In this document: positions 1,470-1,488 of the stretch, one piece after another | Layout: the number at the start of each line of letters is the position of its first letter | Position numbering within the stretch: the first letter of the stretch is position 1 | Assembly: GCF_024502345.1 (NCBI RefSeq) | Contig: NZ_JALDNN010000001.1 | Direction: 5' to 3' (one strand) | From: Escherichia coli | GTDB lineage: Bacteria; Pseudomonadota; Gammaproteobacteria; Enterobacterales; Enterobacteriaceae | Length of the DNA stretch: 64,000 nucleotides | Notes under the pieces: generated by a model | What the model was told of the DNA's origin: nothing | Databases searched by the model: none | The model's input: only the letters and a program-made list of their open reading frames with translations | Position numbers and translations under genes: made by a program

Positions 1470-1488
1470 CCTTCCCCTTACGGGAAGG
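1470..1488. promoter_or_regulatory. CueR (MerR-family) operator palindrome in cueO promoter
   Basis: Perfect inverted repeat CCTTCCC-N5-GGGAAGG about 50 bp upstream of cueO start. Confidence 0.6.

Follow-up and report, generated by a model that had tools for sequence, protein, structure and literature searches.

A palindrome in the cueO-yacC intergenic region of Escherichia coli and its reading as the CueR operator of the cueO promoter

A palindrome lies between the divergent genes cueO and yacC in the E. coli DNA analysed here, a stretch of 64 kb (‘the window’). Is it the operator from which CueR controls cueO in response to copper, or would an RNA structure, another regulator or chance explain it better? 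CueR is a cytoplasmic Cu(I) sensor of extreme sensitivity; it turns on the CopA exporter and the periplasmic oxidase CueO. We are nearly certain that positions 1470-1488 are the CueR operator of the cueO promoter, a copper-activated σ70 promoter of MerR type. A CueR operator at this promoter is already known, characterised and ordinary, and the value of the case is mainly that of a positive control, in which a textbook regulatory site was recognised from raw sequence.

The palindrome and the anatomy of the cueO promoter

The window is a segment of the E. coli chromosome, colinear with K-12 MG1655 but in reversed orientation (BLAST identity 97.5-99.1%); two insertions relative to K-12 lie elsewhere in it. 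The first 3 kb, carrying cueO, yacC, speE and speD, have a match covering 80% or more of their length in 5,423 of the 5,426 complete E. coli genomes. The window begins inside cueO, whose ATG is at 1416..1414 on the minus strand; the gene codes for a multicopper oxidase, i.e. the gene downstream of the site belongs to copper homeostasis. The gene for the regulator, cueR, is outside the window (∼375 kb away in K-12); it was found in 5,424 of 5,426 complete E. coli genomes, a species-level proxy for this strain. The 166-nt region between cueO and yacC is 100% identical to that of K-12 MG1655.

Positions 1470-1488 read CCTTCCCCTTACGGGAAGG, i.e. CCTTCCC-N5-GGGAAGG. An inverted-repeat search returned two arms of 7 nt (1470-1476 and 1482-1488), 100% complementary and 5 nt apart; on the cueO strand the dyad is CCTTCCC-GTAAG-GGGAAGG. 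The original prediction had placed exactly this palindrome here, between cueO and yacC, and it was right to the base: the dyad is inside the intergenic region, and a pattern search of the window gave this single match, even with two mismatches allowed. The exact pattern occurred in none of 100 dinucleotide-preserving shuffles (expected count 0). Perfect 7-N5-7 inverted repeats of any sequence are not rare in the window (11 vs ∼3.9 expected), and for that reason palindromy alone is weak evidence. The case rests instead on which sequence this is, where it stands (within the 19-nt spacer of a promoter) and how well it is conserved.

The features of the locus are as follows.

1..1416, minus strand: first 472 codons of the cueO coding sequence, the gene regulated (annotation of matching E. 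coli records)
1417..1461, minus strand: discriminator, predicted transcription start and 5′ leader of cueO (sequence reading), with a Shine-Dalgarno sequence AAGGAA at 1428..1423
1462..1467, minus strand: −10 hexamer TATGCT (TA.GCT conserved: T, A, C and T invariant, G in 74/75)
1468..1486, minus strand: 19-nt spacer TTCCCGTAAGGGGAAGGAC, 2 nt above the σ70 optimum (length kept in 81/81 loci)
1470..1488, no strand: CueR operator dyad (14/16 bases of the published CueR signal; invariant bases in 75 promoters)
1487..1492, minus strand: −35 hexamer TTGACC of the cueO promoter (TTGAC invariant; sixth base C in 73/75 unique sequences)
1583..1929, plus strand: yacC (annotation of matching E. coli records)

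The dyad thus falls within the −35/spacer region (1468-1492), and its first two bases on the cueO strand are the last two of the −35 hexamer; the operator is within the spacer and overlaps the −35 element. The spacing of the two hexamers was the point on which the original prediction had been said to stand or fall. TTGACC and TATGCT are 19 nt apart, a distance compatible with MerR-type activation, and the promoter has the overlong spacer (19-20 nt) of MerR-type σ70 promoters. A scan of both strands of 1380-1620 for canonical σ70 promoters with spacers of 16-18 nt gave no promoter, as expected for a MerR-type promoter, since a 19-nt spacer falls beyond that range. A terminator scan of the same segment gave none. 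When the window was scanned with a custom pattern, TTGAC[AC]-N19-TAnnnT, the cueO site was found together with one unrelated match, at 30175.

Transcription of cueO would start at about 1453-1457, judging from the usual distance downstream of a −10 element. The ATG is 45 nt past the end of the −10 hexamer, and the AAGGA block ahead of it is conserved in a gapped alignment of cueO upstream regions.

Conservation and comparison with other MerR-type sites

Within the species the promoter is close to uniform. Of the 5,431 E. coli records that match the intergenic region, 5,366 do so with 99% identity or more; for the 3 kb around it, just 491 records attain that level. A 46-nt segment spanning the promoter core has exactly the same sequence in 5,259 of 5,422 records.

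To look beyond the species we used the N-terminal 472 residues of CueO as a query and obtained 80 orthologous loci (73-97% protein identity) from ∼20 enterobacterial genera. The motif TTGAC(C/G)-N19-TAnnnT was present 64-76 nt upstream of the cueO ATG in 81/81 cases (these 80 loci and the window). Among the 75 unique sequences the information content was 1.97 bits per position in the −35 hexamer, 1.53 in the spacer and 1.8 in the −10 hexamer, compared with 0.62 in the 40 nt upstream and 0.75 in the 33 nt downstream; the gapped alignment of 20 genera gave the same conserved promoter block. Seven spacer positions, T6, T7, C9, G17, A19, G21 and G22 (window coordinates 1486, 1485, 1483, 1475, 1473, 1471 and 1470), are invariant in all 75. 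Normally σ70 places no constraint on the sequence of the spacer. These invariant bases, for which σ70 contacts do not account, point to a bound protein.

The symmetry of the dyad is less well kept than its length. In Salmonella, Citrobacter, Klebsiella, Enterobacter and others the cueO (cuiD) promoter reads TTGACC-N19-TA.GCT at a similar distance from the ATG, with a leader ∼10 nt shorter in most genera (34 nt from −10 to ATG vs 45 nt in the window). The promoter-proximal (right) arm, however, is GGGAGGG in most genera, and the other arm has not changed to match, so that the dyad is usually imperfect there (5-6 of 7 pairs); this common state corresponds to C in place of the window's T1472. A perfect 7/7 dyad occurs in 7 of the 75 unique sequences and a dyad with 5/7 pairs in 47. 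The perfect form was seen in E. coli, E. albertii and a few Citrobacter; the GGAAGG core is restored in Raoultella and some others. Read from these alignments, selection appears to keep particular contacts and the 19-nt length rather than symmetry or base-pairing potential.

Compared with the CueR operator of K-12 cueO (yacK), the promoter in the window has no difference at all, and the flanking genes and their orientation are alike; the flanking DNA is 97.5-99.1% identical, the strain not being K-12. The copA promoter, which we take to be the reference CueR site and the source of the DNA in the CueR-DNA and CueR-RNAP structures, reads TTGACC-TTCCCCTTGCTGGAAGGTT-TAACCT in K-12. Its −35 hexamer, 19-nt spacer and dyad register are all as in the cueO promoter of the window, with 22 of 31 core bases identical. 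The left arm is CCTTCCC in both; the right arm is TGGAAGG at copA (6/7 symmetric) and GGGAAGG at cueO (7/7), so that 13 of 14 arm bases are common to the two sites. They differ in the central 5 nt (CTTGC at copA, GTAAG at cueO) and in the −10 hexamer (TAACCT vs TATGCT). The published CueR signal is ACCTTCCC-(5)-TGGAAGGT (PMC1526738); the cueO strand of the window, ACCTTCCC-GTAAG-GGGAAGGA, matches it at 14 of 16 bases. The assignment to CueR made in the original prediction is therefore borne out by the half-sites, by the register shared with copA, one of the characterised sites against which it was to be checked, by identity to K-12 and by published ChIP-chip.

Could a different member of the MerR family, such as ZntR or SoxR, be the regulator that binds here? 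A dyad in a spacer of 19-20 nt is common to the whole family, and the K-12 promoters of zntA (TTGACT-20 nt-TATCCT around ACTCTGGAGTCGACTCCAGAGT) and soxS (TTTACC-19 nt-TATACT around CCTCAAGTTAACTTGAGG) resemble cueO in having a dyad operator that lies within an overlong spacer and overlaps or adjoins the −35 hexamer; a common DNA-distortion mechanism has been described for MerR-family promoters including these two (PMC1526738, PMC8169799). The half-sites, however, are ACTCTGGAGT/ACTCCAGAGT for ZntR and CCTCAAGT/ACTTGAGG for SoxR, unrelated to CCTTCC, and the effectors are Zn/Cd/Pb and redox, respectively. Since the architecture is shared but these half-sites differ, the site is of the CueR class specifically. 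The agreement of its arms with copA and with the published CueR signal, and the ChIP-chip placement of CueR at cueO (bioRxiv 10.1101/2020.08.17.251918), speak for the same conclusion; with the K-12 half-sites and the ChIP-chip data a ZntR- or SoxR-type operator is ruled out, and any other MerR-family regulator is extremely improbable. An RNA hairpin, i.e. an intrinsic terminator or a leader structure rather than a protein site, has equally little probability. The 7-bp G+C-rich stem with its 5-nt loop does fold in silico at −14.3 kcal/mol on the plus strand (z = −2.44), but on the cueO strand the fold does not stand out (z = −1.26), a T-run is absent after the repeat on either strand and the terminator scan was negative. 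The flanking genes are divergent, which leaves nothing to terminate, and the repeat, being part of the promoter spacer, precedes the point where the cueO transcript is predicted to start. Pairing decays to 5/7 across genera without compensatory changes while single arm bases stay invariant. We consider the hairpin reading ruled out by the missing T-run, the divergent genes, the modest z values and the lack of covariation. A chance palindrome in an ordinary promoter is the least credible reading of all: although the window has 11 perfect 7-N5-7 repeats, this specific sequence is expected 0 times, its register is that of copA, and neither the length of the spacer nor its key bases vary over ∼20 genera; the conservation data refute it.

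The yacC side and other features of the window

With the CueR operator of cueO as the preferred reading, one may still ask whether the site is common to a yacC-cueO divergon, with CueR controlling yacC as well. The locus has been named the yacC-yacK divergon (PMC1526738), and the yacC ATG follows ∼95 nt after the site. On the other hand, a separate conserved block, TGCTAACGTT, resembles an extended −10 of yacC's own; the CueR targets named in the literature that we examined are only copA and cueO, and yacC is not linked there to copper. In the Reg-Seq preprint (PMC12133099) yacC appears only in a gene table, and a literature search for yacC and copper gave nothing further of relevance. Depending on the genus, TGCTAACGTT lies 41 to 97 nt away from the cueO −35 hexamer; this variable spacing speaks for two promoters that stand back to back and are independent of each other. 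Control of yacC by CueR is thus improbable in our view; in a weaker variant, CueR bound at the cueO site could also influence the divergent yacC promoter.

The block itself, at 1544-1553 on the plus strand, is the second conserved one in the intergenic region and was found in 80 of 81 loci. Its letters resemble those of an extended −10 element (TGnTAACGT) that would serve yacC; the yacC transcript is predicted to start at about 1559. Next to the block, TTATT/CGACGA is conserved as well (∼1516-1531), and the start of yacC in the gapped alignment reads …GTCTTCAT on the cueO strand.

Captured copies of the chromosomal cueO gene were observed on ∼10 true plasmids of 96-273 kb from E. coli and E. 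fergusonii (pigs, pork and humans). In one example, plasmid pTBE6_2_blaCTX-M-55 (NZ_CP154402.1, locus L084, 1450-4365), homology to the window stops at 1465. The break in the plasmid copies is inside the −10 hexamer (TA|TGCT), with loss of the CueR operator and the −35 hexamer, and the breakpoint is abutted by the IS10-type terminal repeat of an ISVsa5 (IS4-family) element whose transposase gene is oriented away from cueO. To judge from this arrangement, an outward promoter of the IS element may drive the plasmid cueO constitutively.

The two insertions relative to K-12 flank aroP. The larger (∼4.6 kb, window ∼16385-21296) is between pdhR and aroP and carries a 593-aa ORF (19025..20806, minus strand) and three tandem ORFs of ∼95 aa, annotated in related genomes as TssD/Hcp and three bacteriocin immunity proteins; such a set suggests an orphan type VI fusion of Hcp with a toxin, accompanied by an array of immunity genes. 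The insertion is present in 1,058 of 5,426 genomes, the best match being only 95.8% identical. The other (∼2.5 kb, window ∼22791-25302), between aroP and ampE, carries genes for a GPH:cation symporter (22916..24322) and for a GH43 glycoside hydrolase (24322..25272). Few E. coli strains have it (53 of the 5,426 complete genomes), always with at least 99% identity.

BLAST alignments to K-12 overlap or repeat in yacH and aceF (8639-8886 and 11711-12576), where internal repeats are ∼80% identical. Those of aceF are presumably lipoyl-domain repeats; yacH may differ from its K-12 counterpart in repeat number. Among Rfam matches, RF02797 (‘plasmid-encoded Shigella sRNA A’, PssrA) scored 105 bits at 40007-40096 on the minus strand. 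We rejected this identity: the segment is the ordinary chromosomal ftsA-ftsZ junction, part of the core genome (5,424 genomes), over which the K-12 annotation has the antisense RNA StfZ, and the family name is misleading there. Further matches above the gathering score, to the leucine operon leader, tp2, STnc40 and naRNA4 (listed at 61578-61727, 15272-15385, 34291-34360 and 33811-33887), are expected for this region of E. coli.

Regulation by copper and symmetry of the operator

Control of copA and cueO by CueR is established in the literature (PMC9396075, PMC8169799). In ChIP-chip, CueR peaks were located only upstream of these two genes (bioRxiv 10.1101/2020.08.17.251918), a PcueO-lacZ fusion was induced by copper and deletion of both PcopA and PcueO abolished the in vivo CueR-DNA FRET signal (PMC9396075). 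The operator is not mentioned in PMC12589874. CueR promoters have a 19-bp spacer (PMC1526738), 2 bp over the σ70 optimum (PMC8169799), and a MerR-family protein may act as repressor and activator from one site (PMC1526738). In the cryo-EM activation complex the CueR dimer bends the 19-bp spacer and shortens the −35 to −10 distance for RNA polymerase (PMC8169799); structure entries for CueR include 1Q05, 1Q06, 1Q07, 4WLS, 4WLW, 6LDI, 7C17, 6XH7 and 6XH8.

Applied to the window, this model predicts the following course. A CueR dimer would bind the dyad within the overlong 19-nt spacer, overlapping the −35 hexamer. As long as Cu(I) is absent, bound CueR would hold the −35 and −10 hexamers too distant from each other, and in the wrong phase, for RNA polymerase, with weak transcription as the result. 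On binding of Cu(I), Ag(I) or Au(I), CueR would kink and undertwist the centre of the operator; the distortion would shorten the −35 to −10 distance and realign the hexamers, and σ70 holoenzyme could then open the promoter and transcribe cueO. The structures behind this mechanism were, we presume, solved on copA-type DNA. Occupancy by CueR and induction by copper are carried over to this cueO promoter from literature on identical sequence in K-12 or BL21, and by the same analogy we expect CueR and cueO of the strain to behave as in K-12.

What is mildly new comes from the comparison of genera: across Enterobacteriaceae the spacer keeps its length of 19 nt, and perfect symmetry of the dyad is restricted in its lineage. 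As a speculation, to which we give a rather low but real chance, the perfect 7/7 symmetry may be a derived, lineage-restricted state that could tune how tightly CueR binds, or how repression and activation are balanced, at cueO as compared with copA. If so, Escherichia would have a different copper threshold or a different basal level of the periplasmic oxidase.
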